Notes under the pieces: model-generated
Database searches by the model: none
Seen by the model: only the letters and a program-made list of their open reading frames with translations
Told to the model about the DNA's origin: nothing
NCBI RefSeq assembly: GCF_964213995.1
Contig: NC_135802.1
Coordinates: forward strand, 47,430,001 to 47,494,000
DNA from: Mustelus asterias
Taxonomy: Eukaryota
Direction: 5' to 3'
Length of the DNA: 64,000 nucleotides
Translations under genes and position numbers: made by a program
Shown here: one piece after another, positions 25,372-54,883 of the stretch
Numbering within the stretch: position 1 is the stretch's first letter
How the letters are laid out: the number at the start of each line of letters is the position of its first letter

Positions 25372-25579
25372 ACACAAGAATACCAAATTTCAAAAGAACA
25401 ACAATATAAACCGCATGAAAAAAAGGGTACTGATTAGTTGGCAAGTGGATTCTGGTCAAGGCATTCCCAATGGAGAATGTACCAGGGAATAGTTATCCCC
25501 CAAACCTTAGCTAAAGTTCCTTGCTTTTTTGAATTTAAAAAGATTAAAAGGACCACCATATACAGTTTAAATTCATACC

Positions 25580-25773
25580 GTAAGAAGTCTCACCAACACC
25601 AGGTTAAAGTCTAACAGGTTTATTTGGAATCACGAGCTTTCAGAGTGGCTCACCTGATGAAGGAGCAGCGCTCCGAAAGCTCGTGATTTCAAATAAACCT
25701 GTTGGACTTTGGCCTGGTGTTGTGAGACTTCTTACTGTGCCCGGCCCAGTCCAGTGCTGACATCCCAACATCA
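25580..25773 (+). mobile_element. Short fold-back Penelope-like insertion with hammerhead and tail
   Basis: Inverted arms (gtaagaagtctcac.. / ..gtgagacttcttac), tail ..catcccaacatca, TSD taaattca(t/c)acc at 25568-25579 and 25774-25785. Confidence 0.85.
25650..25686 (+). ncRNA. Minimal type I hammerhead ribozyme motif
   Basis: tcac CTGATGA a ggagc-agc-gctcc GAAA gc TC gtga: intact core, stems I and II, palindromic AGCT stem III. Confidence 0.85.
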
Positions 25774-25807
25774 TAAATTCACACCAGTAGAGTGAATTAG
25801 GGACAAT

Positions 25808-26814
25808 GGGTCCTATTTTACCATTTTGATTCCAAGTGCTCGGCGGACTTTAAACTGAGAGTGTTTCAGATCCGACTTTTACCCCTGTTCTGAGGCGCCC
25901 TCATACGCATTCTGCCTGAAAAAATATCAGCAATTCCGAATCGCGCTGCATAAGCCTGTGGGTGGGGCTTAACGTGCCCAAAATCCTGCAGTTCTGATCG
26001 GTACCTCCAACTGCGCATGCCCAAAAAAAAAATGATAGAATGCCGCTCCCTGCCACATCTCTCCTGGGCCAGATAATGCCTCCCCCTGGCCCTCACAGAC
26101 ATTGCCCCACACCCACAACATTACTGACCCCTTTATCCCCCCCACCACCCAGACTAATCAGGGGGCCCCTCCCCCACCTTCCCCCCGCCCCACCCCCCCC
26201 CCCCCCCCGCCAATCTCAGACAGAGTGGCAGCGGAGCCCCTTTCACCCCCACTGATTTCAAGCAAAGTGGCAGCGGATTCCCTTTCACCCCCACTGATCA
26301 CAGGCAGAGTGGCAGCGGACACCCTTTAACCCCCATTAATCACAGGCAGAGTGGCAGCAGACCCCCTTTCACCCCCAATGATCTCAAGCAGAGTGGCAGG
26401 GGCCCTTCCCTCTCCCCCACCCCCCTCCCCCCTGCCCGACTGATCTCGAGCAGGGAGCCGTCGGATGCTTGGTACTTACCTCCTCACTAACCCTCACTGA
26501 TGGAGTGCCCAAATTGGATATATATGGAGCATGTCTGTTTCGTGCCGATTTCGGATGAGCAAACGCGGTGGTAAAGGGGGAAGTGTCGGTAAAGTTGGGC
26601 GTGTAGCCCATTAAGTCAATTTAAATGCATGCAAATGCATTTAAATAGCTGTCGCGCCCGTTTTGGATGCAGTCCTGATTGCATCCATTTTCGGGCCTTG
26701 GTAAAGGGGGAACTGCCACGGAGACAGGCGCGGATCGCGTTACTCTCCTCACACCCGACTTTACCAAGCTTCCGCGCCCAAAAATGGGCACAACGCAATG
26801 GTAAAATCGGGCCC
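25808..26814. mobile_element. Harbinger-type MITE with an internal ~39-bp tandem repeat (~5 copies, 26210-26400)
   Basis: TIRs gggtcctattttaccatt / aatggtaaaatcgggccc; TSD aat on both sides; internal unit cagagtggcagcgga-cccctttcacccccactgat. Confidence 0.85.
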
Positions 26815-27280
26815 AATGACTCTTGCTCCATTTAAATGAGATGGAGTGTTTTTTATACCTATCTAACTTTACCTGGGATGAACCTAGCCAGTTTTCCTAA
26901 TTCAGCTAATCCCTTGTTTTTAGGCTGAGCCGGAAATTGATGCCTGCTCCAAGGTGAGGGAGAGAAGGTGTTCGCTGCCTGGGTCAAGCGTGTGGCAACA
27001 CAAATTCCCCGCAGTGCAGCCCTGTTGCATTTTAGAAGGACAGAAGGAATTTATCCGAGGTCTCAGGATGTTGGTGGCTGTCCCCTTCCAGATCCTCCTC
27101 TGATCTGAAAGGTCAGCCCTGCATCCTCAAACCTCAGTTTCCACTGGCATTTGGTGGAACCCTGAGAAATGATGCCAGAATTATGGTGAAATTCCCTTGC
27201 AATCGACATACATTTTACTTTTCAAACTTCTTGTCAATGTTAACATTTATTTGCTTGAAGTTTAGTGATGCAGGATTACA

Positions 27281-27737
27281 AAGAACAAAGAAAATTACAG
27301 CACAGAAACAGGCTCTTCGGCCCTCCAAGCCTGCAAAGACCATGAAATAACACCCCCTATCTTTCTGGGACTATATCCCTCTATTCCCATCCTGTTCATG
27401 TATTTGTCAAGACGCCCCTTAAAAGTCACTATTGTATCTGCTTCCATTACCTCAGGCAGCGAGTTCCAGGCATCCACCACCCACTTGCCTCATACATCTC
27501 CTTTAAACCTTGCCCCCTAGTAACTGACTCTTCCACCCTGGGAAAAAGCTTCTCACTATCCACTCTGTCCTTGCCTCTCATAATTTTGCAGACTTCTATA
27601 AGGTCGCCCCTCAACCTCCATCGTTCTGGTGAGAACAAACCAAGTTTCTCCAAAGTCTCCTCATAGCTAATGCCCTCCATACCAGGCAACATCCTGGTAA
27701 ATCTTTACTGTACCCTCTCCAAAGCTTCCACATCCTG
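27281..27737 (-). mobile_element. CR1 3' fragment
   Basis: MLPGMEGISYEE..LGLFS.E..RLRGDLIEV and AWNSLP remnants; (ttctttg)n tail. Confidence 0.9.
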
Positions 27738-27761
27738 GAGTAGCCTGTTATGACCTAGTCA

Positions 27762-28032
27762 CAGTAAGAAGTCTCACAACACCAGGTTAAAGTCCAACAG
27801 GTTTATTTGGTAGCAAATACCATAAGCTTTTGGAGCCCTGCTCCTTCATCAGATGGAGTGGAAATGTGCTCTCAAACAGTGCACAGAGAGCACATTTCCA
27901 CTCCATCTGACGAAGGAGCAGCACTCTGAAAACTTATGGTATTTGCTACCAAATAAACCTGTTGGACTTTAACCTGGTGTTGTGAGACTTCTTACTGTGT
28001 TCACCCCAGTCCAACGCCGGCATCTCCACATC
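27762..28032 (+). mobile_element. Fold-back Penelope-like insertion with two oppositely oriented hammerhead motifs
   Basis: ~112-bp inverted arms 27761-27873 and 27886-27998; tail ..gccggcatctccacatca; 12-bp TSD atgacctagtca at 27750-27761 and 28033-28044. Confidence 0.9.
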
Positions 28033-28256
28033 ATGACCTAGTCATGCAGGGTTGTGTTTCGTGACTTTACTAAATGGAGGAATCTCAACCTTTGCACTTG
28101 AAAAGTTAATCACCACTTTTGAAATGGTGTTTAAAAACTCTAACACCCTCCCAAGCTGACAGACTTTGGGGAGGTTATGTCGGTGGTGTTGGAAGCACCA
28201 AGGGAAAATGCAAAAAAAAAATCAGAATTGAAACCATATAGTAGCAGTCACTTTAC

Positions 28257-28408
28257 CTTTGGAGAGGAAATCTTCACGTAGACTATCACAGGAGCCAAAG
28301 AGGTTTTACCCAACTGAGCTGGATGGTTGATTGTGTCCGCATCAAGGACTACTAACTGCAATGTTCTTGCTAGTTCAAAAATCCGCTCAATTTCACACTG
28401 GACTTCAG
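28257..28408 (-). CDS. CACNB2: CACNB2 exon 11 (GK domain)
   Basis: (A)[50 protein letters not shown]; 152 bp. Confidence 0.96.
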
Positions 28409-29487
28409 CTGCAAGTCAAGAAGCAAAAACAGGTCAAGGAGTGCAAGATTGGTTATTCCACTTTTGAAGTTTATATACTAGGGTTTTAGATTCAGTTAGA
28501 ATCGCTCCCAATAATTTCACTGATAAAATTACTGCAACACACACTACTGCATCTTCAGAACCTTTCGATGTTCCGCATACAATTATAGCTGGACTTCTCA
28601 GTGTAAACTTGGACAATGATTTGTCTCAATTGGATACCTGTGTCTGTCCCAAACTCTGATCTCACAGTGAAAATAGCATTTTATTCAAAGTATCGAAAAG
28701 GTATTCCCTGCACATCTTTGGTTATATGAGCCATTTAAACCACAGAGTCCTGAGTGGGCTCAGTGTCTCCTTCATTGTCAGTTGGTTGCTATCCGAGAGC
28801 ATTCTTCATCTGAATCCAGGAAATTTGAGCAACACCAAGGCTGCGACTTTCCTGACCCTCCATGGCAGGACCTCCTCGCTGCAGGAGAAGCGGTCACAAC
28901 GTGCTGTAACACTTTGCTGGATTTCTGCCATCTGTATCAACATCAGTGAACATTAGCAAACGATCCTGACATATACTGATGTCCTGAAACACATCACTGT
29001 CAGCTATGCCCATTACAGTTACGCCAGTCACCATTGTTAACCAGCAATCCTATTTTTCTCCAATGAGCCTGATATAGCTAGCTCATTACAATGTGGCACA
29101 CCAAACTAAAAATGCAAGGTAAAGAGTGAGTGAGTGAGTGAATGATGCTGGGGTGTACTGGAGTGACACTGGCCCCTGGCTTGTTGTCTTCCACAACATC
29201 TCTCGAATGGGAAAATAGATTATGATATCCTGACGAACAACCTTTATATAAAGTGTTCAAAATAAATGGTATGGTAAATGTGTTCAGTAAATGTTATGTT
29301 GGCTAGTTAGAATAAGAATGAAGTACATCAGTAGCTGATGACCAATGCAGCAGAGTGGCTGTCCAAACCTTCTGTTTCAGGGACTTTATAGGAATGGTTG
29401 AAAGTGACAGTATCAAGCGACACAGTAACAAATGCTAATATCTATGAAAGATTTGCCAACCCTCCTTATTCTAGAAAGATACTGATC

Positions 29488-29765
29488 TCTTGATACTGAG
29501 AGGCAGGAGGTGTAGGGGGGATGTGAGGAAAAGCTTTTTTACCCAGAGGGTGATGACTGTCTGGAATGCGCTGCATGGGAGGGTGGAAGAGGTGGGTTGC
29601 CTCACATCCTTTAAAAAGTACCTGGATGAGCATTTGGCACGTCACAACTTCCAAGGCTATGGGATAAGTGCTGGTAGACGGGATTAGGTGGAAGTTCAGG
29701 TGTTTCTCGTGTGCAGACTCGATGGGCCGAAGGGCCTCTTCTGCACTGTATGATTCTATGATTCT
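29488..29765 (+). mobile_element. CR1 3' fragment
   Basis: RGDVRKSFFTQRVMTVWNAL..FKKYLDEHL followed by a (tgattcta)n tail. Confidence 0.85.
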
Positions 29766-30249
29766 TCTCTGCACCCAATATGTGTACAGTGTTATGAAAC
29801 AGGAATTGTAAGTGGGAAAACCCTACTAGGTTAGTAAAGTTTTTAAACCATTAGATATTAAGGCACTGATGGAACTACCAGCATGAAGTTAAATTACTTC
29901 TAAAACAGGCTAACAAGAAAGCAGTTTACACACATGAGATGCAGTAAGACATTTAAACAAATGATTATGATTTTGAAACACATATGTTGATATTTTGAAT
30001 GTATTAATGTATTTTTAAAGATATATTGTTCACTTCAGCCAAGAGCAATTTGCTGCGAAGCATCGTGGTCAAAGGCATTTGGGCAAAGCCATATTCCAAG
30101 AGAATATGCAAGCTTTACCGGTAAAGTTTCGGATGAAGAGAACATTTAGAACACTTAATCATATTTCATGAATAGGGTTTATTCACTATCCAGACAAGAT
30201 GGATGCATGCTCAGACATGGAGTCATGTATTTGTACTTATTTATTGTAT

Positions 30250-30545
30250 TTATTTATTTGTGTCACAAATAGGCTTACATTAACACGGCAATGAAATTAC
30301 TGTGAAAATTCTCCAGTTGTCACACTCCGGCGCCTGTTCAGGTACACTAAGGGAGAATTTTAGCATGGTCAATGCACCGAACCAGCACCAGTCTTTCGGA
30401 TTGTGGGAGGAAACCGGAGCACCCGAAGGAAACCCACGCAGGCACGGGGAGAATGTGCAGACTCTGCACAGACAGTGACCCGAGGCTGGGAATCGAACCC
30501 GGGCCCCTGGTGCTGTGAGGCAGCAGTGCTAACCACTGTGCCACC
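30250..30545 (-). mobile_element. V-SINE with alternative tail
   Basis: Same structure as 13350-13635. Confidence 0.85.
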
Positions 30546-32542
30546 TACATGTGTTAATCTGGTTTGGCAGTGACCTATAAGGGAACCCATGAGAACATTC
30601 ATTTGAATGTTGGGCTAGCGTCTGAAGTTACGAGGCAGTGCGGGAAGTGGGGTCAGCCAAGACGAGTTAGCTTCCGGATTTTACGTATTAATAAAATGCC
30701 ATTATGCCAGAGGGTAAGATGCGATTGGCTAAGGTATATGACAGGTATTTTGTTGATTTATGTATATTGAAGATGATTGATTTAAAGTTAATGAAAGGTG
30801 GGGAGTTATTGATAAGAAAAACCTATAATTGATCTGTTTTGAATTGTATATGTCAGATTTTCATTAGAAAGCTCTAGCTGCTCAATTTCAGAGCTGCCCT
30901 GACCCTTTGATGGTCTCCTAGTGGCCGCTGGTTGTAATAAAAGTTACATCTTGAAACTGAGACACTAGCTTCATGAGTCTTGTATTTTCTGAAGTTTAGA
31001 GAGCACCGGCCGCCTCGGAAATCCCACCAACAGGGATTAACACAGGTGATGGCCTTTTCCTATTCTTCCTGAGCTAATCTTCTTGAAGAGCTCTCATGCT
31101 CATTACTGCCAGAGGATCTACATCTCAGCCTCACTTCCTCAAGGAGAAGTCTCCTGGAGCACTGCAGAACATGGTTATTGAACGTGCAAACCCAATCCGT
31201 GCACCTTCACTAAAAGTTCATTGTTTTAGAAATAGTTCCTTACATTTCAATATTCCTTTTCTCAAAAAACAACTTAATCCCCTTGCTGAAATTCAATCCA
31301 GACAAATTTGTTTTGCACTATATCAAACATAGCTGGAAATTAATCAATATATCACTGGGCAGCATATTGTGCATTGCACTTTTTCCTAATCTGAATTCTA
31401 TATACATGTTATCAAGTTTTCTTAAAACGTTTTTCAATTAAAATATTTTTTTAAATGTTAAGGACCGGGATTCTCCGATCTCTTTTGCCCTGCCACCACT
31501 GCCTGTGAGAACTTAGCACTCAGCCAAAATTCCATTCATTGCTACAGGACCAGAGAATCCCAGCTGCGGACGAGGTCAGAGAATTCCAGCCAAGATGGAC
31601 TGAGAGGTTGGAAAATTCAAATCAGTTGTCAAAACCACTGCGAGAATTCAATTTATCTACATTTTATCTATTAGATTTCTAACAGACAAAACCCAGATAT
31701 TTAAGCTGGGAATATTCACTATGCAGCAGTAGCTAATTTCTCGAATTTCTTCATCCTTTTCAAGATCAAAAATACTTCCAGGTGCCTCTGAATTTCCTAT
31801 GAAGCCACTAATTAGCCAGCGTAGGCACGATGGGCCGAATGGCCTCCTTCTATGCTTAACGATTCTGAGATCCAGCGAACAGATAGTATTCTGTACTGCT
31901 GTCATGGCAACAACGGACAACAATATCAAGAGAGTCTAAAAGGCAGCAGGGAAACATTAAAGATCTGCACCACATCAGAATGTCAATAACTTTCTGTTCC
32001 TTCAATAACCAGACGAATAATTTATTAAATGCACTTCATTTGACAGTAATTTCCATCCTTCAACTCCAATTATACTGGTGAAACTGTACATCATATTAAA
32101 ATGGCAAGTCATTTAGCTTAACACAAGGAACACCAATAGAAATGTTCTTGCACCCGGGGAAGGGAAAATACATATTTGTCTGCAAACTTGTATGTTAAAT
32201 TGGCAATTTTGATATTTTAAGTATTTTGATGAAAGTAATGGACTAACGCTCAAGACATCCAGATGTTGCATTTTTTGAAATTCTGCCAACTATATTCCAC
32301 CAAACCCTTCGACTCCTTTACAATCGTGACAGTTCCATAATAATGGCAAGTAGGTCGCAGAATCAAAGCTTCATATTGATGCTCAAGACTTGCCACTAAC
32401 TGGACACAATTTCAGGCTAAACCTACAGGATAGAAGTGCTGAGTGTTAGAGATGCTTGGCTGCTGCTTTTTGTACTCTTTGTTGTCAAGGAACAAACCTA
32501 AACTTTGGGCCAAAAGCACTGCTGACTGTCAGCCAGAGTTTA

Positions 32543-32805
32543 AAGTTTATTTATCAGCGTTACAAGTATGTTTTTATTAACACTGGAATGAAGTTACTGT
32601 GAAAATCCCGTAGTCGCTATGCTCCAGGTACACTGAGGGAGAATTTAGCATGGCCAATGCACCTAAATGGCACGTCTTTCAGACTGTGGGAGGAAACCCA
32701 CGCAGACACAGAGAGAATGTGCAGACTCTGTACAGACAGTGATCCAAGTCGGGAATCGAACCCAGGTCCCTGGCGCTGTGAGCAGTGATAACCACTGTGC
32801 CGCCT
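32543..32805 (-). mobile_element. V-SINE with alternative tail
   Basis: Same structure as 13350-13635. Confidence 0.85.
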
Positions 32806-34242
32806 ACACTGTGAAGGACAAGCTTGCTCTCTTTTTGCCCTTTCTCGTAAGTCGCAAAGAAAAAAAAAATCAGTTCTAATTGGCAGATAGATTTTGGCGG
32901 AGAATGGAGGCGGGGGAGAGAGAGGAAGTGAAAGGTTGCTAGTATTTTTTCTTGGTTTCAGTGGCACTCTGGTGTATGCTGGGACTGCTGTCACTTTGGA
33001 AATCGAATGACTTGGCATCAACAACAACAAAATCAGTCAAGGTTTTCAGATAATGGGGGATGCAAGGGGAGAATTAACAATGAACATTCAAAACTTGGAC
33101 TGCTGAAAAGTGATAAAAAGGCCATTAAAATTTGGTGCAATTTCATACATTTTCAATCATAATCATTTGCCAATTCACTAGAATTTAAGTGACATGGGAT
33201 TTGATAATGACAGTCTGTTATTCATGGATTTTTGTTAATTGAACCCGAGACTGGAATTTCCTGATGTTTTGCGCCACAGCGATAGTGTATCCCCATGAAC
33301 CTTCTACAACCGCCTGTATTTTGAGAACGACTGATGACTTTGCTCTCCCCACTCTATGATCCCTGGAACTTAAGTGTATATCTGTCAAGACTGCTGAAAA
33401 ACAGTCAATAACAGCACTAATCAAAATCAATGCTAGTTATAATTTCACTGAATTAATACCACTTTGACCACTGAATATAATTAGCACCAGACTTTGGACA
33501 CATTCAATGTCTAAAATTCTAAGGCTGGAATCTTACCACTGTTCACACCGATGGGATTTGCCCATCCCACCGCAGTGAGCGGAGATTTGTCTGGCCGCCA
33601 AATTCTCCGAATTCGCTGCAGCAGGAACATGGCGTGAACTGCAGGTAAGATTGGGCCCAATACTGTGGGATATGAATGTTAAGTTATTGGCCTGAGATTT
33701 TTCTCTCTGCTACAGCAGATAAGTTAACTCATTTAAAATAAATGGCTTAATGCCTATGATAGAACGCCAAAAAAATATCAGATACATGTTTTAAACATTG
33801 ATTTGCCAGAAAAAAGGAATGGAATTTGTGTTGTGGGAAGAGCCTTTGGGAGCATCCGTAGTCTTCTCCTATGTAACAGCAGAGACAGTTCCAATTCAAT
33901 AGTGCAGTTGAACTGGAAATCATGAATAATTGAATAAATGTGTGTTACTACTTTTGGATAAATGTAGTGTGTCCCTGTCCTTACCAACCAAGTGCCCAGC
34001 AGCAACTGCAAATGACAATGATGAATTTTCTGCCCACAATTTTCCACCCACTGTGCTTAGGGACATGTATGGACATTTTGGGAGCTAACTACAGCCAGGA
34101 GGCTGCTGTAAATCCTTTTTAGTATATACCTTTTGTGTTCATGAATGAAGTCTGTGAAAGCGCATCTTCACAGTGTGTCAGGTGAGGATTCAGAAAATCT
34201 ATTCCATGATTGGTGAATTCAAAAAAGCAGATGTATTCAAAT

Positions 34243-34752
34243 CATAGAATCCCTATAGTGCAGAAGGAGGTCACTCGGCCCATTGGGTCTGCACCAGCTC
34301 TCTGACAGAGTGTCTTATCCAGGCCCTATCTCCATAATCCCACATATTTATCACAGCTAATCCACTCAACCTACTTACCTTGTGACACCTTGGGGTAATT
34401 TAAGTATGGCAAATGCATCTCGCCTGCACAGGCCGAATTCTCTAGCCAAGTTTCCCACCGGCGGGAGGTGGCGTGTTGTTTGCTGGTGGCAGAATACTCT
34501 GGTCCCGCCGCTGTCAATGGGAATTCCCACTGATGTCACCCCACATCAATGAGAAACCCATGGGTGAAGGTGCGTGTACGGCCAGAGAATTCTGGCCCAC
34601 ATCTTTGGACTGTGGGAGAAAACTGGAGCACCCGGAGGAAACCCATGCAGACACAGGGAGAATGTGCAAGCTCCACACAGACAGTCACCTAAGGCCGGAA
34701 TTGAACCCAGGTCCCTGGCACTGTGAGGCAGCAGTGCTAACCACCGTGCTGA
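34243..34752 (-). mobile_element. HE1 V-SINE interrupted by a small MITE (~34430-34596)
   Basis: SINE halves flank an element with TIRs ggccgaattctctagcc / ggccagagaattctggcc. Confidence 0.8.
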
Positions 34753-36665
34753 CCTGAGAAATGAGAATCCTTTGTTTGTAAGGTGCAAGTCAAACCGATG
34801 AGGTCATATCTATTGCCCATTCTAAACCTTTCTTCCAATAACTACTGAAATATTGATACAATGAGACACAAAGGTGAACAACCCTAAAATATCACAATCC
34901 AAACATTGCACTGTAGTGAGGCCACATGGAGAACCTGCATGTGAGAGTGACTCATTCAACTATGACTATTCTTCAGAAGTAGCAGCTTTACTGATGACAA
35001 GCCAAAAAAACAAAGCACAGCCAAAAAACAAGTACACAGACATAAAAACACCTGAAAGAATTTGTTGCCAACTTTCTAGTATACATACCCAAAGCATCTG
35101 CAAAGGGAGGGCATTAATAAAGCAAAAGAATAAAAAAAAAGCCAAGACAATCAAGTTTGTACAGAGCACAGAAAATGTGTTACAAAGTTATATGCAATGG
35201 AAATGTACAAATGTGGAACCATTTGTTATTTATATAAATTAATACCACAGACACAAGCAGTGCAGTAAATTTCACAGTGAGGCCAGTGCAGGAAATGGAA
35301 AATGTCACACTGGTTCGGTAAGCAGTGCTTTACTAGGTTAAGTTTTATTACTGGGGCTGAGTAGAAACAGCTTCAATCTGCAGCTGGCCATGTGATAACT
35401 GACCTGGCAGTACTCAAAGACAGAGACACTGGAGCCAAGAAAAAGCAAAGAAGTCAAGTGCACAGCACAGACCTCATAAAGATAAGCAAACGAAAAGATG
35501 TGAGATTCTCTTGGACGAACAGAAGTTGAACATTGAAAACATTCCATCTCCACTGTACTATTCTACAGTTAAGCTTTTCAGTTGGGAGTTCTGGTTTTCC
35601 TTTTGTCTGGAGCATGATCATATAAATACTATGGTTTAGTGGTTGTGTTATTGGGTTAGTACTCCAGAGGCCTTGCTGAATAATCTGAAATCCCACCATG
35701 GCAGTTTGTGAACATATTTCAGTTAATTAGCTAAATTTGAAACAAAACGGTAGTAGTTGACCAGGAGGATTTTAGGACTTTGGTAAAAACACAACTTCTT
35801 GTAATGTCCTTTAGGGAAGGAAATCTGCCATCCCTACTTGATCTGACCTATAAGTGTGGTTAATTCATAACTGCCCTGTGAATGGCTTTGTAAACCATAA
35901 AACCCCTAAAGTATAGGAGGAGGTCATTTGTCCCATCAAGGCTGCACCAACTCTCCAACAGAGCGCCATGAATTCAGTTTACCTCCACCTTAGCAGGGGA
36001 TGACCTCAAGGGATGATCAATAAATGCTAGCCTTTCCAGTGATGACTACATCCCCTGAATGTACAATAATTTAGAGTCAAAGAGGTTTACAGCATGGAAA
36101 CAGGCCCTTCGGCCCAACTTGTCCATGCCTCCTTTTTTTTTAAACCCCTAAGCTAGTCCCAATTTTAAAAAACAAAAAAAAATGCAGGCAGGCCAAATGA
36201 GGAATCCATTTTAATGTGGGATGCCTGATGGTTTCTTGACAGGATATTTTCATCTTCAGCATTCCCTGTGCAAAGCTTTTCACACAGCGCATGTCAGGAT
36301 TTCAGAGTAAATTTAAAAAAGGTAATTTACCTGGACAGTTCTAATTATCATACTGTGTGAGGCAAGTGTGAAATTTTTAACCAGATCAGGAGTAACTCTC
36401 AGAAGCTAGATTCCTTACAGAGGCTAGCGTGATCACCATGTGCCTCCAATTTATACTCCGAGCTACTAGAAGCGGACTGGTAGAGAAGCCTAGAATGAAG
36501 TAAATACCAGGCCCTTAAACGACAACAGTATTTATGGATTGCAAGAAAAAGCTTTTGGGAAAGCACGAACAGAACATTTCCCTAAAATCTTCCATTAGAA
36601 CCAAAATTATTTAAAGCATTGTGCATAGTCAGATCAGAAAATCAGATTTTAGAATAACTCGCTTA

Positions 36666-37013
<348 letters not shown>

Positions 37014-38379
37014 CTAAAGGACGGATGTATTTTTATCAGTTCAAACTGAAATATTCCATTAATCAGAAGTGCAACCAGCATGTCATGTGCCAGAAATGCA
37101 GTTTACGATATCCTAAGAATTATTCAATTTGTTTACTAACTGCAAATTATATTTTACTTAAATAATTAAACTAAAATTAAATTAAGATTGGCTTACATAA
37201 AAAATGTACTGATTCTTATCAGAATGCAATGTGTAGAGGCTTTCAGACATGAAGCTGAACTGAACAAGCTTCACTTTAGAACAAATGGCACTTCTTCACT
37301 TTTCCTTTTCTGATTTCCTGCTATTCTCTAACCGCTTTTCCAAAAGCTGCATCATGCTGGGTACTGTTTTATGGGAGACATTTACCCTCTGGTATCTCAG
37401 ACAAGAAGCCATTTTGGTGAGGGCTCAGATGATGACTTTGGCAAATCTATTCAACCTCAAATGGTAAAGTCAAGCAGGATTACTATTACCGTAAACCCAA
37501 AAGTGAATGAGCCTTTGGACATATGTATTGGGCAAGCACAGCAATGGACTTGTGGGGAACAGTCTGCAGTCACCATTGAGGCTCAACCATGAACAACAGA
37601 CTTGAATGGGGTAATGGAGAATGTCAGAACTCTATCTGCAAGAACCAACATCTCCAGAAAATGGGAAATAGCGGAGAAAGGTTTTTTAAAAACTGCATAC
37701 AAATAAGTTCTGAATGTCTTGCATTCATTAACAAATATTTCCCGTGATATTCCTCCTAAATGAAGAGGAAGTGCACAAGGAGCTGAAGGTCTACTGATTG
37801 AGTTACAGGACGTAAATGGAATTGGATTGGCAATTCGCAAGGAGAGTGGTAATTAAATCCTGTGATATTGAATGTTTTCAACTTCCAATATGGAGTTATA
37901 CAGACCAAACAAAAAAATTTGAATGCATGAGTCAGAGGACGATGAAGAGAATTAAATCTTTTTCCAAGGCTTCAACAATCTTTCTGTGATTTAATCACAG
38001 TCACTTAGTCAGAGAAGGAAGCAGCTGAAAAGTCAAGCTCAAGTTATTTCATGGATGATCATAACATCACCTAGAAACCAGGATTGTGTCTCCATCCAAC
38101 TTGCCCAGACACTCTGCCACCCTACTTAAAACTACGAAATACAAAATCCTTTTGACTATAATTGTCAAAAAAAATTAAAAAGGGTGAGTGCAGTACAGCA
38201 CAAGTGGGAGAGCGTTTTAAAAATTATGGGGTGTCTGTACCCATCTGATCAACAAAGTTAACACACTTTTTGCCATTTCACTCTGTAGGGAGATTTTGCC
38301 AGACTTTGGAATCATTCCTTTTATAAAGTATTAATGGATGCTGATGAAATATTGAGGACTCAACCTACGCATTGACCCT

Positions 38380-38600: not shown

Positions 38601-38649
38601 TTGAGGATTCAACCTACATATTCACTACTTCCTATAGAACTGTACGTAC

Positions 38650-39959: not shown

Positions 39960-40079
<120 letters not shown>

Positions 40080-40107
40080 TTAGAATGTCATGAACAGAAT
40101 AGTTTCC

Positions 40108-42060: not shown

Positions 42061-42452
42061 CATAGAATCCCTACACTGCGGAGAAGGCCATTCAGCCCAT
42101 CAAGCCTGCACCAACTCTGACAGAGGGCAGGATTTTACGGCCTCACTCGCCCCGAAACCATAAAATTCCACCCAAGGTCAACGGACATTTCCATTCCGCC
42201 TCTCGCCCGCTCCAATTTCTGTGGTAGGTGGGACGGTAGAATTCGGCCAGGTCCTCTCCCCTGCCTTATCCCTGTCATACCACACATTTCCCATGGGCCA
42301 ATCCATCTACCCTACGCATCTTGGGACACTATGGGGCAATTTAGCATGGCCAATCCATGTAACCTGCACATGTTTGGACTGTGGGAGGAGGAAGCACCTG
42401 GAGAAAACCCAGGCAGACATGGGAAGAGCATGCAAACGCTACACAGACAGTC
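42061..42452 (-). mobile_element. Decayed HE1 V-SINE with an inserted MITE fragment (~42126-42250)
   Basis: catagaatccctaca tail and V-domain remnants. Confidence 0.7.
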
Positions 42453-44770: not shown

Positions 44771-44835
44771 GGCTCCATAGCTCAATGGTTAGCACACTGG
44801 TCTTGTAAACCAGGAGTCACAAGTTCAATTCTTCA
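44771..44835 (+). pseudogene. tRNA-Thr(TGT) pseudogene, 3' end decayed
   Basis: ggctccatagctcaatggttagcacactggtcTTGTaaaccaggagtcacaagttcaattct closely follows vertebrate tRNA-Thr-TGT; anticodon stem ctggt/accag is intact, but the acceptor-stem 3' strand is lost. Confidence 0.8.
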
Positions 44836-45279
44836 GGGATCAGTTGGCTGGGTGGATAGTTTGTGATATGGAGTGACATCAAGAGCAAGCATTTAATTCC
44901 CATAATGGCTGGGGTCATTTATAAACCTACTGAAGACTACAAAGACAACACCTCTGTAACAACAACCTTGCAACAAGCAGCAACTGTTGATTTCTCACAC
45001 TTAGATTTTGTGATGCAAGAGATTCCATGAAGGTGGGAAGGTTTAGTGGTCCCAGGTGTTGGATACCCACACTCTGAACTCCCCCAAATCTACTGCACAG
45101 CACTCCTCAGACTAGTAGACTTCGCAGCTGCACTCCTCTCTCTATGAAGGCACTGTCCTCACACCCACTGACGCTCACCCTGATCTCAGTGCCATCCCAG
45201 ACATATCCCCCACATCCATTCTCCTCAAATGTTCTCATTCCATCCTTTCCATACAATTCACAGCTCACGCCTGCTTTCT

Positions 45280-45430
45280 TTCTCTGCAAAGAACACCTGG
45301 GAGAGACAGAGAACCGGAGGTGGCCCTCCAATGAAGCTAGCCTGTCCACTGCAGAGGCAGCAGCAATGGAGATTAGCTGGGTGGCGGAGTGCAAAGCTGT
45401 TGCTGGTGAGATGGGAGTCTCCCGGATACC
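45280..45430 (+). pseudogene. Harbinger transposon Myb/SANT-like protein remnant
   Basis: AKNTWERQRTGGGPP / LSTAEAAAMEI (frameshifted) resembles the N..ER..TGGG.P...LT..EE motif of Harbinger accessory proteins. Confidence 0.6.
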
Positions 45431-46192
45431 GGGCGACAGAATTAGAAACCACACTGCCACTCGGCACACAACCATCGCTGAGGTTGACTTCTTGTCACCG
45501 TTTAGTGAAATTTGAACATCTGCACAATGTTGACTCTTTGCCCTTTATTTCCCGCAGCTTTGAGCATAACGCAGGAGCTGGAGGAAGGAGGAGGCAGGCG
45601 AGTTCTCAGGGGTCACACAGGCTGAAGAAACACTGGCACAGGACGGATGAATAACTTCCACCATCTCGGATGCAAACCCTACAGTGGGTCTCCTAAATTG
45701 TTTGGAGTATTTGGGTGGCTTTGGTGCTACAATGCAGGACGAATGTGAAAAACTGTCACTGAAGGAAGCACGACCGTGCTTACTGAGGGGCTACTGCATG
45801 GCCAACTCCCACTGGGGTGAAGAAAACTTCCCAGCCATACATTAAAGGCATGATCAACATTTATCAGCATTTATCAGTGCAATGCCAGTGCAGCACAAGA
45901 AGCTTTTTCAACTCTTAATGATGGAATATAGGAAATATTTCTAATGACCCCACCTCAACCACCCTTTGGGGCAGAGAATTCTAGAGATTCACCACCCTCT
46001 GAGAGAAGAAATTTCTGAGTTTTAAATGACTGGCCCTTTATCTTGTAGCTATGCCCCCTAGCCGAGACTCTCCCACCAGTGAAGCATCTCACTATCCATT
46101 CTGTCAAGCCCCCTCAGGATCTTATATGTTTGAATAAGGTCACCCCTCACTCTTCTAAACTCAAAGGAAGACAGACCCAGACTATTTCCTGG

Positions 46193-46776
46193 GAACGGAG
46201 TGGGAATGGAGGGATACAAAAGAGTGGTCTAGTTTGGACCAGGGAGCGGCGCGGGCTAATTGTTCTTTGTTTCTCGTTTCAAGGCTTCATTCTATGATCA
46301 TCTTGCTGGTGCCAGTACAGAGCGAGACTGCGGATAGTTGGGAACCTGTCTCGGGGGCAGGGAATTCAGATGGTGTTCGTAAAGCAGAAGTGGAAATGAA
46401 TAGGGTTGGGAAGCATTTTCTGATCAGGGCCAGTGTGATCTCCTGGACTCGTTTCGATCGCCTCAGGGGGTCGGAGAGGAATTTCCCAGATTTTTTTTCC
46501 CCATATTGGCCCTGGGGTTTTCACTCTGGGTTTTCGCCTCTCCCTGGAGATCACATGGTCTGGAATGGGGGGGTGGGGGTGAGTTAATAGGTTGTGATGA
46601 ACAAAGCATCGTAGCTGTGAGGGACAGCTCGGTGGATAGGATATTAGGATGTAGATAGGCTGGAAAATTGGGCGGGGATCCTGGATTCAGGATTCAATCC
46701 TGGACCGGGGAGCGGCGCGGGCTTGGAGGGCCGAAGGGCCTGTTCCTGTGCTGTATTGTTCTTTGTTCTTGTTCTT
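46193..46776 (+). mobile_element. Young CR1 3' end carrying a ~443-nt internal passenger, inserted in an older CR1 fragment (~45940-46890, -)
   Basis: Near-identical to the reverse complement of 62859-63445; 23-nt direct repeats at 46235-46257 and 46701-46723. Confidence 0.85.
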
Positions 46777-48134
46777 ATTTCATCTTTCTTGATAGGACAA
46801 CCCTCTCATCCCAGGAATTAGCCTGGTGAATCTCCTTTGGATTGCCTCCAATGTTACTTTATCCTTTTTTAGGTAAGGGGACCAAATCTGTATGCAACTG
46901 AACTGTAATTCATGCCCAGGATGCCATTGAATAAATAAGGACTCCCAAGGTAAAATTATTTAGGCAAATTTAATTTAGGTAAGAAGAAAGTCTTTTTATT
47001 GTTAATGATGTCTGCCAAGACCCTAAGTTTAGTTAACCTTGCTCGTGGACTTAGATTAGCACCTCTAATTATTATAAATATAAGTATACAAATTCAATGC
47101 ACCAGTCATGACTTTTCATCTTGAAAAGATCAATGCGAAACAGAAAGCATCTCAAAATAAAATGGCTAGTGGTTTGATTTTCATGAACATTTGTTTGTCA
47201 ATCCCAGTGCAGACACGATAGGCCAAACAGCCTCCTTCTATGCTGTTGATTTGATTAGAAATATAACTAGCTATTACTTAAATATGGATAAAATGCAACA
47301 GAATACATTACAAACTAACGATTACAAATATATCCAGTTTAATTATACCAGCATATATTTATTATCAGATGTAACGTCACATCAAAAGCAAACATGGGCA
47401 CTAGGGATAGACTGCGTAATTAAGCAAGTTGCTTTCAAGGGAAACAGAGACAATAGCACCAAATGGTCTTTGTCCAAAGCATTCACACATCGCTTCTTAT
47501 CATTTCCCAATAAGACTTTTTTCCCCTGGGCAGCACATTTTCTCCCATTTATTTCAGATTTATAGTATGTTTTTCTTTTCAGCCACACTCTCATTTTCTG
47601 TGTTAAATTTATTTCCGAATAGTTACAAAATACCCAAATGTAAGTTACCAAGAAACCAGTAACCAGCACATGACTCAATTTTCAGATCGTATCTTAAAGT
47701 AACAAAACATGCCAAACATCAAAGCAGAAAACACAAAGCATCAATACGACTGAACTTAACACACAAAGATCAAAGCACAGTAACAACAGCCATAAAGATT
47801 TTTTTTCTCTCTGTTTCACCTAAACTAATGCACAGGACAATCTAATACAATACTGACAGTCCTGTTGTCCAGTTGCTAGGTAGCAGGGAATGTCCCAGTG
47901 GCATAATTAGCATGATTCTCAAAAGTTTATGCACATAGCTAGCTCTCTGATGAGTCTCTTGTGCATGCTTTAGAACCAATCAAAATCTGAATCTCTGCAA
48001 ATCATGTGTTGCAATTATGTGGTCCTAGTGTTCACTCATTTTTCAAGAAAGAAACTTGTTCATGCTGATCGAGCTTAAGATTTCAATGCTAATTATGCAA
48101 TGGGCAGGACCGACATGTAACAATATTGACTTAC

Positions 48135-48154
48135 CGATTTCTGCTTCTGTTTAG
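48135..48154 (-). CDS. CACNB2: CACNB2 alternative micro-exon 7B (AKQKQKS)
   Basis: tatag|CTAAACAGAAGCAGAAATCG|gtaagt; 20 bp. Confidence 0.93.
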
Positions 48155-48307
48155 CTATAGAAACATTGAAGAAAAAAACAAGAATAACAGGGCATGCATA
48201 TTATTGACTTTTCACAGGACACATACAAATACAAGACATACTGCTGGTTATGTGACATACTGCTGGTTAGCACGTGCGACAGACTGCAGTTTAGGAAGTA
48301 TGGTTAC

Positions 48308-48441
48308 CTTCTTAAAGAAGGGCATTCTTTTCTCTTTAGACTGGGGAGACGTTAGACTGTTTACACTGGCTATAGGGGAGCGGTGATTTGCCGGGGGATC
48401 ATTGTCTTCTGCATCTAAGCCACTGGCATCTAAATCAAAAG
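48308..48441 (-). CDS. CACNB2: CACNB2 alternative exon 7A (long HOOK)
   Basis: [45 protein letters not shown]; 134 bp. Confidence 0.95.
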
Positions 48442-48846
48442 CTACACAGGCAGATAGGTCCAGGGTACCAGGCAAGAGGGGAAGGAAGGAAAACAGGAGT
48501 TGAATGAATGGGAGTAATTCAAATAAAATATACAGTGGCACATATAAAGTAAAATATGGCAATGTACAAACAGTAAAAGAAAAGGAACCAAAGACAACAC
48601 ACCTATTTATGTCAAATATAAAACAAGAGACAAACAATGAATTGTGCCATAAATACCGAGAAGTTTAAACTGGAGCTTCTGGAAAAAAAGGTAAATAAAT
48701 TCTCTGCAGAAAGAATTTGGCTTACTTAATCATTACAACAATAAACACACTTCATTATTCACTTGCAAACATCAGATTGAAACTCTATTGGCAGGTTTGT
48801 TAACAGTGGCAAACTTCAAATAAGGAAGCATCCTTATCCATCCTGT

Positions 48847-49178
48847 GGGGAGGCAGTGGCGCAGATGTATTGTCACTAGACTAGTAATCCAGAGACCCAG
48901 GGTAACGCTCTGGGGACCTGGGTATGAATCCCACCATGGCAGATGGTGAACTTTGAATTCAATTTTTAAAAAATCTGGATGACCACGAAACCATTGTTGC
49001 AAAAACCCACATCGTTCACTAATGTCCTTTAGGAAGGAAATCTGTTGTCCTTACCTGGTCTGGCCTACATGTGACTCCAGATCCACAGCAATGTGGGCGA
49101 CTCTTAATTGCCCTCAAGGATGGGCAATAAATGCTGACTCAGCCAGCAATGTCCACATCCCATGAATGAATAACAAAA
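48847..49178 (+). mobile_element. SacSINE1/DeuSINE-type SINE
   Basis: tRNA-like head gggaggcagtggcgcag..., conserved core and catcccatgaatgaataa tail. Confidence 0.85.
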
Positions 49179-49385
49179 GTGAGACTTTCATTATCACCTT
49201 TAATCTATTTGTGTAAAAACAGACAGTATGATGGTTCAGTTTGTGGACATTAATTGTGCACTTAAGGACATCAATTGGCAGCAGGGCAGAAGGCCATAAT
49301 CAGGGTGCGGCAGGAAGGTGGTGGGGTCCCCACATGCCATCCTCCTACCTCATTAACTGAAACCCCCCCACCCCAACGCCAAACA

Positions 49386-49731
49386 GGGCGGCATGGTAGC
49401 ACAGTGGTTAGCACTGCTGCTTCACAGCTCCAGGGTCCCGGGTTCGATTCCCGGCTCGGGTCAATGTCTGTGTGGAGTTTGCACATTCTCCTCGTGTCTG
49501 CGTGGGTTTCCTCCGGGTGCTCCGGTTTCCTCCCACAGTCCAAAGATGTGCGGGTTAGGTTGATTGGCCAGGTTTTAAAAAAATTGCCCCTTAGAGTCCT
49601 GGGATGTGTAGGTTAGAGGGATTAGTGGGTAAAATATGTGGGGGTAGGGCCTGGGTGGGATTGTGGTCGGTGCAGACTCGATGGGCCGAATGGCCTCCTT
49701 CTGCACTGTAGGGTTTCTATGATTTCTATGA
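49386..49731 (+). mobile_element. HE1 V-SINE, full length
   Basis: A box and B box (ggttcgattcc), V-domain and (tttctatga)n tail. Confidence 0.92.
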
Positions 49732-51889
49732 TATCCTGGGGGAGGTAACTGAATTGTGCACACACACTCATAAGAAAAATTATTACATTAATCTGCAAAT
49801 ATAGTCATTCAATTCTTTTCTTGAAATCACTTATGTTTACATGGGATCAAGGTGCATTTAAATTACTTGGCTTGTTATTATCCACTTCTGTTTCTCTTCT
49901 CTCAAGGCCTCAGTTTCTGTGCTAAGTACCCTTCCAGTAGATATTGTCAGGCTAAGTAAACATGGCTCTCGAATAGACTGGATCTTAAACTATGTCTGGC
50001 AGAGGCAGAGGCAGAGCCCGGCAGCCTGCACTACTACTGGGATCAGTACGGAGAAAAGAAAATCAAAACAAGGGGAAAGAATATTCAGGTCAATAGACCA
50101 TGACTGAAAAAGTCCAGCCAATTTCAAATTATTCTTTGTAATCAAATGTCAGGAAAAATATTATAAAGTAACGGGAGGACTTCAAGGAGAGGCTACAGAA
50201 AATTTGTTCTTGTTCTGTTCCAATGCCATCTGCTCACACCCCGCTGAAGATCTAGTTCTTATTACCACGTGTAATTGCAATTTAATCTTTGAGAAATAGC
50301 GTCAAGCCAAGCACTTGTATATCAGTGCATCCAATTACCAAACCCATCCTTACAACCCACAGCTCACATTTCCGCTTCAGGTCGCAGGCATCCAACCCAC
50401 ACAAATAATTCAGTTTCATCATGTACAGAAATCCTAGCAATGCCCTAATCAATATGAAGCTCTCCACACCAGTCATACTACAGACATAATTCACATTTAA
50501 GCCTATAGACCAAATGGCAATCCTGTAAATTATGGTGTTCCAACAAGAGATTAAGGGGCCAATTTTAATATGCTCAAAACCCTAAAAATCATGGCATTCA
50601 AAATCATTTCCAATCGCCAATGGAACAGAATGTTAGAAAGTGAATACTTCTTATCATCCTAAGCAACAGGGGCTTTGGGATTCTGTAGTCGCCTTCATCA
50701 TTTGCTATTTGTCACCAGATGGACCACTTACTTCCCTCAACATCTCTGCTCCAATTTGAGAAACCTCTTGGTTTGCTTCAATTTGCATGTCTTATGGATG
50801 AAAGAGAATTAATTACAACTAATTTAAAAAGTGCAATCAGTAAGAAAGCTCTGAACTGCTCAGGTTTTTACTCCCCCTGTCTGCTAATAGCATTTCAATA
50901 AACTCTATTTATTTTGGAATTAACAAGGTTATTTTTTCATCTTTAGGTGTGCGTATGGAGCTAAAATGAAATGGAAAGAACTGGATTGGATATCTGGTTA
51001 AGGACATACTGAAAATCTAAAGATGATTAAATACATGTCTGGCTCCTATATTATGATGTGGAGATGCCGGCGTTGGACTGGGGTAAGCACAGTAAGAAGT
51101 CTCACAACACCAGGTTAAAGTCCAACAGGTTTATTTGGTAGCAAATACCATAAGCTTTCGGAGCAATGCTCCTTCGTCAGATGGAGTGGTCTCTGTTCTC
51201 AAACAGGGCACAGACACAGAAATCAAATTACAGAATACTGATTAGAATGCAAATCTCTACAGCCAGCCAGGTCTTAAATGTACAGACAATGTGGGTGGAG
51301 GGAGCATTCAACACAGGTTAAAGAGATGTGTATTGTCTCCAGACAGTACAGCTTGTGAAATTGTGCAAGTCCAGGAGGCAAGCTGTGGGGGTTACTGATA
51401 ATGTGACATAAATCCAACATCCCAGTTTAGACCGTCCTCATGTGTGCGGAACTTGGCTATCAGTTTCTGCTCAGTGACTCTGCGCTGTCATGTGTCGTGA
51501 AGGCCGCCTTGGTGAAGACGAACATCTCGCCAAGGCCATCCCCACACCCCGGCACGGTAGCACAGTGGTCAGCACTGCTGCTTCACAGCTCCAGGGACCT
51601 GAGTTCGATTCCCGGCTTGGGTCACTGTCTGTGTGGAGTTTGCACATTCTCCTCGTGTCTGTGTGGGTTTCCTCCAGGCGCTCCGGTTTCCTCCCACAGT
51701 CCAAAGATGTGCGGGTTAGGTTGATTGGCCATGCTAAAAATTGCCCCTTAGTGTCCTGAGTAGGTTAGAGGGATTAGCGGGTAAATGTGTAGGGATATGG
51801 GAGTAGGGCCTGGGTGGGATTGTGGTCGGTGCAGACTTGATGGGCCGAATGGCCTGTTTCTGCACTGTAGGGTTTCTATGATTCTATGA

Positions 51890-52414
51890 CCCCCACTTCT
51901 TGCCTTCAAACAACCACGCAACCTCAAACAGACCATTGTCCGCAGCAAACTACCCAGCCTTCAGGAGAACAGTGACCACAACACCACACAATCCTGCCAC
52001 AGCAACCTCTGCAAGACGTGCCGGATCATCAACACGGATGCCATCATCTCACGTGAGAACACCATCTACCAGGTACACGGTACCTACTCTTGCAACTCGG
52101 CCAACATTGTCTACCTGATACGCTGCAAGAAAGGATGTCCCGAGGCATGGTACATTGGGGAAACCATGCAGACGCTACGACAACGGATGAATGAACACCG
52201 CTCGACGATCACCAGGCAAGACTGTTCTCTTCCTGTGGGGGAGCACTTCAGCAGTCACGGGCATTCAGCCTTGGATCTTCAGGTAAGCGTTCTCCAAGGC
52301 GGCCTTCACGACACATGACAGCGCAGAGTCACTGAGCAGAAACTGATAGCCAAGTTCCGCACACATGAGGACGGTCTAAACCGGGATGTTGGATTTATGT
52401 CACATTATCAGTAA
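51890..52414 (+). pseudogene. PLE ORF C-terminus: Cys linker plus GIY-YIG endonuclease, one premature stop
   Basis: PPLLAFKQPRNLKQTIVRSKL..CHSNLCKTC..NIVYLIRCKKGCPEAWYIGETMQTLRQRMNEHR..VGEHF..EQKLIAKFRTHEDGLN; TGA at 52316-52318. Confidence 0.9.
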
Positions 52415-52621
52415 CCCCCACAGCTTGCCTCCTGGACTTGCACAATTTCACAAGCTGTACTGTCTGGAGACAATACACATCTCTTTAACCTGTGTTGAAT
52501 GCTCCCTCCACCCACATTGTCTGTACATTTAAGACCTGGCTGGCTGTAGAGATTTGCATTCTAATCAGTATTCTGTAATTTGATTTCTGTGTCTGTGCCC
52601 TGTTTGAGAACAGAGACCACT

Positions 52622-52658
52622 CCATCTGACGAAGGAGCATTGCTCCGAAAGCTTATGG
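52622..52658 (+). ncRNA. Minimal hammerhead ribozyme motif (mirror copy on - at ~51148-51184)
   Basis: ccat CTGACGA a ggagc-att-gctcc GAAA gc TT atgg. Confidence 0.8.
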
Positions 52659-54883
52659 TATTTGCTACCAAATAAACCTGTTGGACTTTAACCTGGTGTT
52701 GTGAGACTTCTTACTGTCCTATATTATGTCCATGACAACTTCAACCTTTGAAACACATTGGGCAGAGGGTTGAATAGAATAGATTATGTTAATATTTTCC
52801 AACTCCGCTTCACTGGAGTCTGGTCCTGTATCTCCTCCAGGGGAATCAATTAATGGGGAAGTGCAGCAGGACAAATGGCAAAAGTTCTATTGTAGGAAAA
52901 AGGAGGCACTTTTCTCCTTCCATACTCATAGACAATATCATCTCTTTCCAGATGCAAGTGTTTGAACTGTCAAATAGTGCTCAGAGGTTACTCAACAACT
53001 TTGTGCCATTTTATTGTTGGAGCAGCTTCATAGCAAGTGATGGAGCAATACGTGGCACTGGAACACCAGCTTGCTGAACCATGTGCACTTGGCTGTTTAA
53101 ATAACGACTGGATACGTCCCAGCGATGATACCTTTCATGGTTGAATAGCCTAGCAGAACAGTTTACACATTCACATAAACTTAACTACTCAGTGGATAGA
53201 CTGAACATTGGTCTTCAAACAGTGCTAAAAAAAGGGGAAGAACATTTGTAAAATTAAGTATCATCCACATTCAAGCAGATAAGCCAACATCACACAATGC
53301 ATCAGAGTGAAGTCCACTGCCATACTATGGTTGATTGATCAGTTTTATGTCTACACAATACTTAACGGTTCTTTAATGCATGGATACTACCCTTAGTCAA
53401 TATTAAAATATGTGGAAAGAGGGAGGGAGAGAGGTGCTGTGGAGAAAGAGAGAGGAGGATAAAGCAGCATGATGAACACCGCTGTGTTACTGTTTACAAG
53501 ACAGCTGATTTAGATATAAATGTCTTTCTGCAGATTATAGAAATCAGCATGCATGGGTTTTAGAATGGCTTGCTTCTCATTTGTATTTAAGGCATGGTTC
53601 CACCATTTTAAAATTTGAATATTTTAAAATTGCTTCAATTCTCTACGCAGGGAGGGTGCATAGTTGGTTGGCTACTCTCAGAGGAGTTGGATATTATCTC
53701 AAACTGGGCAAGGTCACTGAATTTTGGCTCCCACTGTCATTTTCAATAAATCTCTGAACAACCAAAGCTTGTCATCACCTCCAGATGTATGAACCACTCA
53801 CTATGCTCTGGCAGCTCAGGGATCACTGATATTCAAAATGGATGGAGATGTAAAACGGCTGCAATAAATGAAGAGCAAAACAGATGTGGAGGGAAAACAA
53901 TATTGGTCAAAACAAGAAGGAAACGACATGATAACTAAACACTTTGCAGATTGGTTCAGGAAATGATTAACAGATAGGCCAGGAAAAAAGTGCAAAATCC
54001 TGATAAATTTTATAGTGACGTGTGATCATCCAGGTAGCTCTCAGCAGTGTCATTTTTTTCTGAGCCTCACAGTTATTCATCATTCACATCAGAAAATGCA
54101 TCAGAAAATTCTCATCCATGATCATAAACTTTAACCTGCTTTGCTTCACAATCTTCAATTTTTACCTGATAATAATAAGCTCCTGAAGATTAATTTTGAT
54201 GGCGAAAGGTTGAGCATTAAGAATCTACTGCCTGTCTTGGTAAAATGTGTGATAGGTTCACTTCAAGCTCCAGAGAAATTGAGAGTTTTCCTTTCACTTC
54301 CCTGGCAGCCAGAGGCAGAATTAATCAACCATGATGAAGTGATCATATTTCAGATCTTTAAGTATAATCTGATTTCACCTCCCCGCATCAACATTAGTAA
54401 ATCAATGTACTGATTCAGTTTTTCTGGCCAGAAAGAAATCTTGTGCGGCTTTGTGAAAAAAAAACTACAGCATAAAAGGGTTAGCCATGCTACCTAACTG
54501 ATATTGCCTCAAGGAAGGCTACATAGTAGATTTCAATCCTGTTATCTGCTAACACCCATCTTGATACCTGCATTCATTCAGAGATACAGATTCAGGAAGG
54601 ATAGACTGGACAGCAGCTAGAATCCTAGCATTTGATGTACCAAATTGTAAGGATTAGAAGTTGCCCTGCCCCAATGTCTGGGTTTTTTTCATAAAGTTAT
54701 TTTTAATTAAACTACTAGTCTCAGGCAGGAAGATAAAATATTCTCATTGCTTTTAAATACACATAGCTAACAGAACAATATTCAGGTTCAACAATGCAAT
54801 TCAAACAAAATCTAATCAATAAACTAATAATGATGATCAAGTATAGGTGTTTTGGAAGGTAAAGAATTTGTTGACCCACTTAC

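Follow-up and report, generated by a model that had tools for sequence, protein, structure and literature searches.

Fold-back insertions with hammerhead motifs in a Mustelus asterias calcium-channel gene as probable products of two-ended priming by a Neptune-type Penelope-like element

We analysed a 64,000-nucleotide stretch of the Mustelus asterias genome (assembly GCF_964213995.1, contig NC_135802.1, positions 47,430,001 to 47,494,000 of the forward strand), hereafter the window, which carries a calcium-channel beta-subunit gene on its minus strand. Three fold-back insertions, E1 (25580–25773), E2 (27762–28032) and E3 (51056–52716), are each flanked by 12-bp target-site duplications (TSDs). 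These are probably dead, 5′-truncated, head-to-head insertions of a Neptune-type Penelope-like element (PLE), made by two-ended priming at a symmetric target, the short ones having stopped at the start of the element RNA. By this account, a two-fold symmetric enzyme would nick a CTG-N16-CAG target at positions 12 nt apart, and both nicks would prime reverse transcription. With the hammerhead residue C3 counted as position 0, one reverse transcription would start at the start codon of the open reading frame (ORF), at +126, and yield the arm bearing a tail, while the other would start about 34 nt upstream, at +92, and yield the tail-less arm. Both would likely copy the same RNA toward its 5′ end, and the two cDNA ends would be joined via short microhomologies or a few added bases. 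Where priming occurred at the sites in the upstream pseudo-long terminal repeat (pLTR), the template would end about 130 nt away, at a capped start beside stem I, giving 200–270-bp ‘strong-stop-like’ hairpins such as E1. E2, of a young, TATA-less subfamily, ends more diffusely (−21 and about −35), and E3 would derive from a longer, broken template.

The family was identified from its coding sequence. A coding fragment of E3 for the Cys linker and GIY-YIG endonuclease (51890–52414, plus strand, with an in-frame stop at 52316–52318) matched Pfam PF01541 (E 4.2e-5) and gave 68,920 first-look candidates genome-wide. A full element was found at one locus (L071): a partial tandem, accompanied by an inverted copy, includes an intact 892-aa ORF for reverse transcriptase (RT) and endonuclease (EN), with an RVT_1 match at E 7.6e-10. 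The tail of this element ends at the A of the ATG start codon (+126), and tail-less arms end at about +92. Between RT and EN, both E3 and L071 carry a C-x4-C-x2-C linker, which points to Neptune, since a CX2-5CxxC linker is the criterion of that clade (PMC8557442; the published sources cited here were available in part, and statements on them cover those parts). This linker also occurs in Nematis, and in vertebrates only Neptune and Poseidon have been reported. The family shows the features that define EN+ PLEs: one ORF for RT with a C-terminal GIY-YIG domain, a partial tandem with pLTRs, an inverted 5′-truncated copy, a one-sided 30–40-bp tail, a TSD and a pLTR hammerhead. The assignment to PLEs in the initial annotation of the window is thus borne out by the L071 ORF, the GIY-YIG fragment of E3 and the 98% identity between the two copies.

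To describe the family at large, we used a random sample of 128 fixed-position 10-kb stretches (1.28 Mb), together with tail loci found by pattern search. In the random sample, we counted 143 pLTR arms; 36 inverted insertions were bounded by TSDs, and 20 of these did not exceed 300 bp. Extrapolation gives approximately 411,000 arms and 57,000 short hairpins genome-wide, with a background density of about 110 arms per Mb. The genome contains 57,995 exact matches to a 28-nt word of the tail. The 37-nt hammerhead motif of E1 has 1,547 exact copies, against none for the reversed control, and is therefore not a chance match. Copies extending into EN-coding sequence exist in every subfamily, including that of E1.

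The structure of the three inserts was re-measured in the window. E1 lies between TSDs at 25568–25579 and 25774–25785 (12 bp, one mismatch) and consists of a tail-less inverted pLTR arm (25580–25647, minus strand), with its 5′ end at about +15 to +17 inside stem II and without the CUGAUGA core, and a tail-bearing arm of the old TATATA subfamily (25649–25773, plus strand), with its 5′ end at −5, the putative transcription start. Its minimal hammerhead (25650–25686, plus strand; stem I TCAC/GTGA) is antisense to the host transcript and has its predicted cut after 25682. E2 is bounded on the left by a CTG half-site (27745–27747), 2 nt and a TSD (27750–27761), and on the right by the TSD (28033–28044), 2 nt and a CAG half-site (28047–28049). 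Its tail-less arm (27762–27889, minus strand) and tail-bearing arm (27886–28032, plus strand, 5′ end −21) overlap by approximately 4 nt at the centre; the hammerhead of the former (27820–27856) has G12 changed to A, and that of the latter (27903–27939) is altered in the GC step and stem II. E3 is preceded by CTG (51039–51041), 2 nt and a TSD (51044–51055), and followed by the TSD (52717–52728), 2 nt and an imperfect half-site, CAT, ending at 52733. Its tail-bearing inverted arm (51056–51516, minus strand) contains the last EN codons, the pLTR and the tail, with an intact hammerhead on the host strand (51148–51184). The tail-less long arm (51509–52716, plus strand) overlaps it by 8 nt, is 5′-truncated at ORF nt 2117 and contains a second intact hammerhead (52622–52658, plus strand; stem I CCAT/ATGG; predicted cut after 52654). 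The interruption at 51550–51888 (plus strand, about 340 bp) is a later insertion that we take, from its structure and general knowledge, to be a tRNA-headed short interspersed element. The two arms agree in 60/67, 106/112 and 426/428 aligned columns in E1, E2 and E3, respectively, and each insert has exactly one tail. The inserts, inverted arms, one-sided tails and approximately 12-bp TSDs proposed in the initial annotation are thus real, but the end that it gave for E3, 52717, is the first TSD base. It had also placed a hammerhead in every insert: the motifs exist, but E1 has one on the plus strand only, both E2 copies are damaged and only E3 has two intact copies.

We then compiled 119 non-redundant TSD-bounded inverted insertions (36 from the random sample, 15 from the tail-pattern search and 68 otherwise selected). 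Exactly one tail was present in 116 of them and none in three; the TSD was 12–13 bp in 73/119, and the spans were continuous from 107 to 3,145 bp. The fold-back form is the normal product of the family. Among the 116 insertions, the 40 with 12-bp TSDs showed T (34/40) and G (35/40) at −4 and −3 outside the duplication, and C (29/40) and A (29/40) at +3 and +4. A CTG and a CAG at a spacing of 16 were found at 34/116 sites, compared with 0.6 expected, and at a spacing of 17 at 9 sites, compared with 0.7 expected; TG-N16-CA occurred at 64/116 sites, compared with 4.5% of random sites. In the window, E2 matches CTG-N16-CAG fully, E3 nearly and E1 not at all. Taken together, the target preference and the TSD would suggest that the nuclease is two-fold symmetric and cuts with a stagger of 12 nt.

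The 5′ ends of the arms were concentrated beside stem I. In the random sample, 37 of the 82 arms reaching +9 ended in −20 to +9 (1.6–1.7%/nt), compared with 13 in −200 to −21 (0.09–0.30%/nt) and with 0.3–0.9%/nt downstream. In old subfamilies, TATATA stands at −36 and an Inr (initiator)-like A at −6, 30 nt apart, in keeping with the 30-nt rule for TATA-to-start spacing and with the Inr consensus. TATA and Inr-like motifs have also been noted in rotifer pLTRs (PMC3846280). When tail-pattern loci were added, the ends were more focused in old than in young subfamilies (16/25 vs 7/32, p 0.002). In the first 100 of 5,267 genome matches, counted by hand and including approximately 11 substitutions in longer copies, the base before A(−6) was G in 66, A in 12 and T in 22. 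For ends one base on (−5), G was found in 29/100 (hand count; Fisher p 2.6e-7 against −6); the background is 31%. An independent local set gave G in 8/11 at −6, but in 6/14 at −5 and 4/8 at −8, and a partner suffix of at least 8 nt ending in G was present at 5 of the 30 loci checked. By analogy with L1, we read the extra G at −6 as a copied cap; the shortest copies would then likely have run off the capped RNA start beside stem I. We rejected splicing as an explanation of the −6 stop, since an AG acceptor and a constant upstream exon are both lacking; an apparent pile-up at position 328 and part of a −4 peak were reference artefacts, and subfamily references were used instead. From old to young subfamilies, the TATA box is lost in steps (TATATA, TTTATA, none) while the element stays active, which would imply a promoter switch.

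An alternative keeps two-ended priming and ascribes the pile-up and the extra G to stalling or repair during reverse transcription at a pseudo-palindrome beside stem I. Of the 66 cases with G, 34 have T-G before A(−6) (hand count), creating the pseudo-palindrome TGA-C-TCA, and several centres are exact palindromes at this site. However, the ends pile up beyond the structure, on its 5′ side, at a point where the RT has traversed it; one base on, G shows no enrichment, and the site stands 30 nt below a TATA box. Moreover, only 973 such matches come from the TATA-less young subfamilies that share this A, mostly substitutions in longer copies; the first 100 include approximately 27 true junctions, about 14 of them with G (hand count). 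Stalling is, in our judgement, a rather unlikely source of these ends.

The two arms of an insertion are related in a way that bears on how they were primed. The tailed arm was shorter in 55/116 insertions, longer in 27/116 and within 5 nt of its partner in 34/116. The 5′ ends of paired arms were correlated (rho 0.74); outside the start zone, they lay no more than 10 nt apart in 21 of 75 pairs, compared with 3.5 after shuffling (maximum 11 in 10,000 shuffles), and paired arms agreed in subfamily in 67/69 cases. PAc, an Anolis Poseidon element, cleaves and extends both strands in vitro, and two internal RT start sites delimit its tail (Frangieh 2024, PMC11167929). From the arm-length asymmetry, the end correlation, the centres and this in vitro result, we infer that both nicks prime reverse transcription, probably on one RNA. 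Single-ended priming followed by snap-back, in which a single cDNA folds back and is copied into the inverted arm (as proposed in PMC3846280), would also give correlated ends and the short palindromes or microhomologies at centres, and in L071 the inverted arm shares 99.8% identity with the tandem unit next to it, compared with 99.1% for the distal one. Snap-back is nevertheless decidedly unlikely: a short tailed arm is not a copy of a long arm that itself lacks a terminal tail (an internal tail, as in L071, being the exception), and the insertions end precisely on either side, within a symmetric target.

The centres of the hairpins argue against a unit that transposes as such. All 64 short hairpins examined have different centres; in 76 well-aligned pairs, the arms overlapped by 1–18 nt in 36, were flush in seven, were separated by 1–14 extra bases in 21 and by larger inserts in 12. 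The initial annotation had left the short forms as either truncated integrations or an independent non-autonomous, retrozyme-like mini-family transposing as a fold-back unit. For the latter speak the 20/36 random insertions of up to 300 bp, the clustering of arm ends near stem I and the existence of non-autonomous PLE derivatives (PMC8557442; bioRxiv 2026.07.22.740005). Since all 64 breakpoints are distinct, spans are continuous and every subfamily has copies running into EN, such a mini-family is very improbable. In addition, hairpins occur in each subfamily with the variants of that subfamily, no shared internal junction marks a recurrent unit, and the hairpin fold is predicted to abolish the hammerhead; retrozymes are by definition direct tandem repeats with a hammerhead per unit, and E1–E3 are inverted pairs. 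Both alternatives leave out a third, in which each junction is unique while the arm ends fall repeatedly within a single zone, probably the transcription start. Some centres are of separate interest. In two loci (L144:5312-5581 and L044:6159-6442), the centre is filled by the tail and the first 37–60 ORF nt, joined to hammerhead positions +3 to +5, which suggests template jumps to other RNA fragments. In another (L146:9444-9637), it consists of repeated short copies of the arm ends, like templated insertions of end-joining repair. In 12 of the first 100 junctions listed, the two arms share one and the same 6-nt microhomology at +33, which marks a joining hotspot.

Several observations weigh against two-ended priming with run-off at a capped start. 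Half of the random arms (71/143) lie outside TSD-bounded pairs, E1 has no CTG or CAG in its flanks, and 52/116 sites lack TG-N16-CA. The 67/69 subfamily agreement fits two RNAs of one source locus as well as one shared RNA. In the random set alone, the end focus of old and young subfamilies (14/23 vs 5/15) does not differ significantly (p 0.18). An estimated 24 or so of the 66 G's at −6 may come from the partner arm or microhomology, although the remainder still exceeds the 31% background, and cap copying as a source of 5′ G is knowledge taken over from work on L1.

The hammerhead itself is a minimal type I motif, as the initial annotation had proposed, with a conserved core and covariation in support of stems I and II. 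The compensatory change in stem I between E1 (25650–25686) and E3 (52622–52658) was found as described, and its pairing is supported genome-wide: the core-proximal pair was C-G in 11,566 copies and U-A in 28,395, compared with C.A in 1,659 and U.G in 1,653. The C.A copies listed were mostly CpG-type decay, and U.G was often present in both arms of one insertion and therefore looks like an intermediate subfamily. In 17 chosen haplotypes, 94.8% of cells were paired (26–47% in slid controls), with two-sided change in 3/9 pairs, and the fourth stem I pair was unpaired in 8/17. The selection on RNA structure that had been read from this change thus holds for active master elements, with about three pair changes along one lineage, and not for the copies in the window, a few-event pattern that the findings of Cervera and De la Pena match (PMC4209133). 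Among 230 motifs from all loci, position 17 was U in 125, C in 65, A in 38 and G in two, with U in the youngest subfamilies; U gives the weakest cleavage triplet. Pooled over subfamilies, no clear excess of starts was detected at the predicted cut (+29), where the local hazard was 0.63–0.81%/nt over +27 to +31, compared with 0.4–0.9% nearby; single subfamilies may still show one. Apparent starts in the first 100 of 3,782 genome matches (hand count) numbered 18 at +27, 14 at +28, four at +29, 21 at +30 (including about six subfamily or deletion variants), seven at +31, 12 at +32 and 24 at +33 (including the 12 microhomology-hotspot cases); an all-A/T 4-mer lay upstream of 18/36 early starts. 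An Rfam scan of the inserts gave no gathering-level hammerhead match and only sub-threshold, chance matches to miRNA hairpins. In the reading preferred here, the hammerhead is selected in the active element and is a passenger in the window copies.

The initial annotation had further placed ribozyme motifs on both strands of CACNB2 introns, which is true of E3 alone, where the arm–arm duplex is predicted to lock them. That E1–E3 work as ribozymes or regulators within the pre-mRNA of the host calcium-channel gene is barely credible: E3 does have an intact motif on the host strand and the isolated motifs of E1–E3 form stems I and II with a predicted probability of at least 0.9, but this falls to 0.0 in each of the complete insertions, owing to pairing between the two arms, E1 lacks a host-strand motif, that of E2 carries G12A, minimal hammerheads cleave poorly even as dimers (PMC4209133), cleavage in vitro requires the protein of the element (PMC11167929), and the arm density is that of the genome background.

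The host gene is likely CACNB2, judging from exons identified by PDB sequence search. Minus-strand reading frames contain a CACNB SH3-domain exon (59138–59326, best match beta-2) and a guanylate-kinase/C-terminal exon (18224–18541, best match beta-1). Further minus-strand frames resembling host exons, at 17095–17631 and 48251–48664, presumably encode the C-terminus and the HOOK region of the protein; Pfam gave no match for three of the four host-exon frames, these two included. On the host-transcript strand at 25645–25660, the antisense of the 5′ edge of the old-subfamily hammerhead forms a near-consensus 5′ splice site (CAG/GTGAG), and many thousands of such arms could offer cryptic splice donors. 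The window also holds tandem arrays at 19124–19484 and 26204–26420, with periods of 19 bp and 42 bp. At another locus (L036:5949-9594, minus strand), we observed long ORFs that we take to belong to a Ty3/gypsy-like LTR retrotransposon.

A more specific picture, which we hold tentatively and at slightly less than even confidence, is that of a transposase/LINE hybrid. A dimer would read CTG-N16-CAG and nick 12 nt apart; two RTs would run in tandem on one RNA from sites 34 nt apart, the leading, tail-less one usually going further, and both would stop at the same RNA end. Priming in the upstream pLTR would then have left tens of thousands of hairpins recording the capped start and its G, directly at the 5′ edge of the hammerhead. 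More generally, the hammerhead hairpins that such genomes hold by the tens of thousands are to be taken as by-products of integration rather than regulatory ribozymes or miRNA precursors. The family lends itself to tests of its target motif, of the 12-nt stagger, of the two sites at which RT starts and of the predicted start of transcription, and it offers natural full-length ORFs.

The architecture, the tail and the minimal hammerhead are already known from other elements. For PLEs, we found no description of a palindromic target, of two-ended priming on a shared template or of a cap-marked run-off in the open-access literature, supplements excluded; those of PMC11167929 may bear on target preference. 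With EN+ PLEs (PMC8557442), including Pen2a of Adineta (PMC3846280), the shark family shares the ORF for RT and C-terminal GIY-YIG, partial tandems, a head-to-head inverted copy, a one-sided tail, a TSD and TATA/Inr-like pLTR motifs; the inverted 5′-truncated copy with a 30–40-bp tail is described in PMC8557442, and Craig 2021 attributes both the copy and the tail to unexplained cleavage properties of EN. The shark family differs in the near-fixed 12-bp TSD within CTG-N16-CAG and in short forms that stop at the putative start. PAc (PMC11167929) likewise cuts and extends both strands, starts RT at two internal sites that bound an AC-rich tail and has a minimal hammerhead upstream of these sites. 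However, its ORF starts inside stem II and its RT starts lie about 111–118 nt into the ORF, whereas in the shark family the ATG coincides with the distal start site and lies 126 nt below C3. The preferred target of PAc is AT-rich ATT, that of the shark family a spaced palindrome, and the shark family has the Neptune-type Cys linker. The hammerhead shares with published minimal type I motifs the CUGANGA core, the unpaired base before stem II, G10.1-C11.1, the palindromic GC step and the 4-bp stem I; the minimal-hammerhead paper reports opposite-strand pairs 100–700 bp apart and many consensus families with compensatory changes. Many shark copies differ in having U at position 17, and sharks are not named in the available part of that paper. 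Finally, non-LTR retrozymes (bioRxiv 10.64898/2026.07.22.740005) are, like the shark hairpins, ORF-less and pLTR-derived with a type I hammerhead, but they are direct tandem repeats that amplify as units, whereas the shark hairpins are inverted, one-off products with unique centres.

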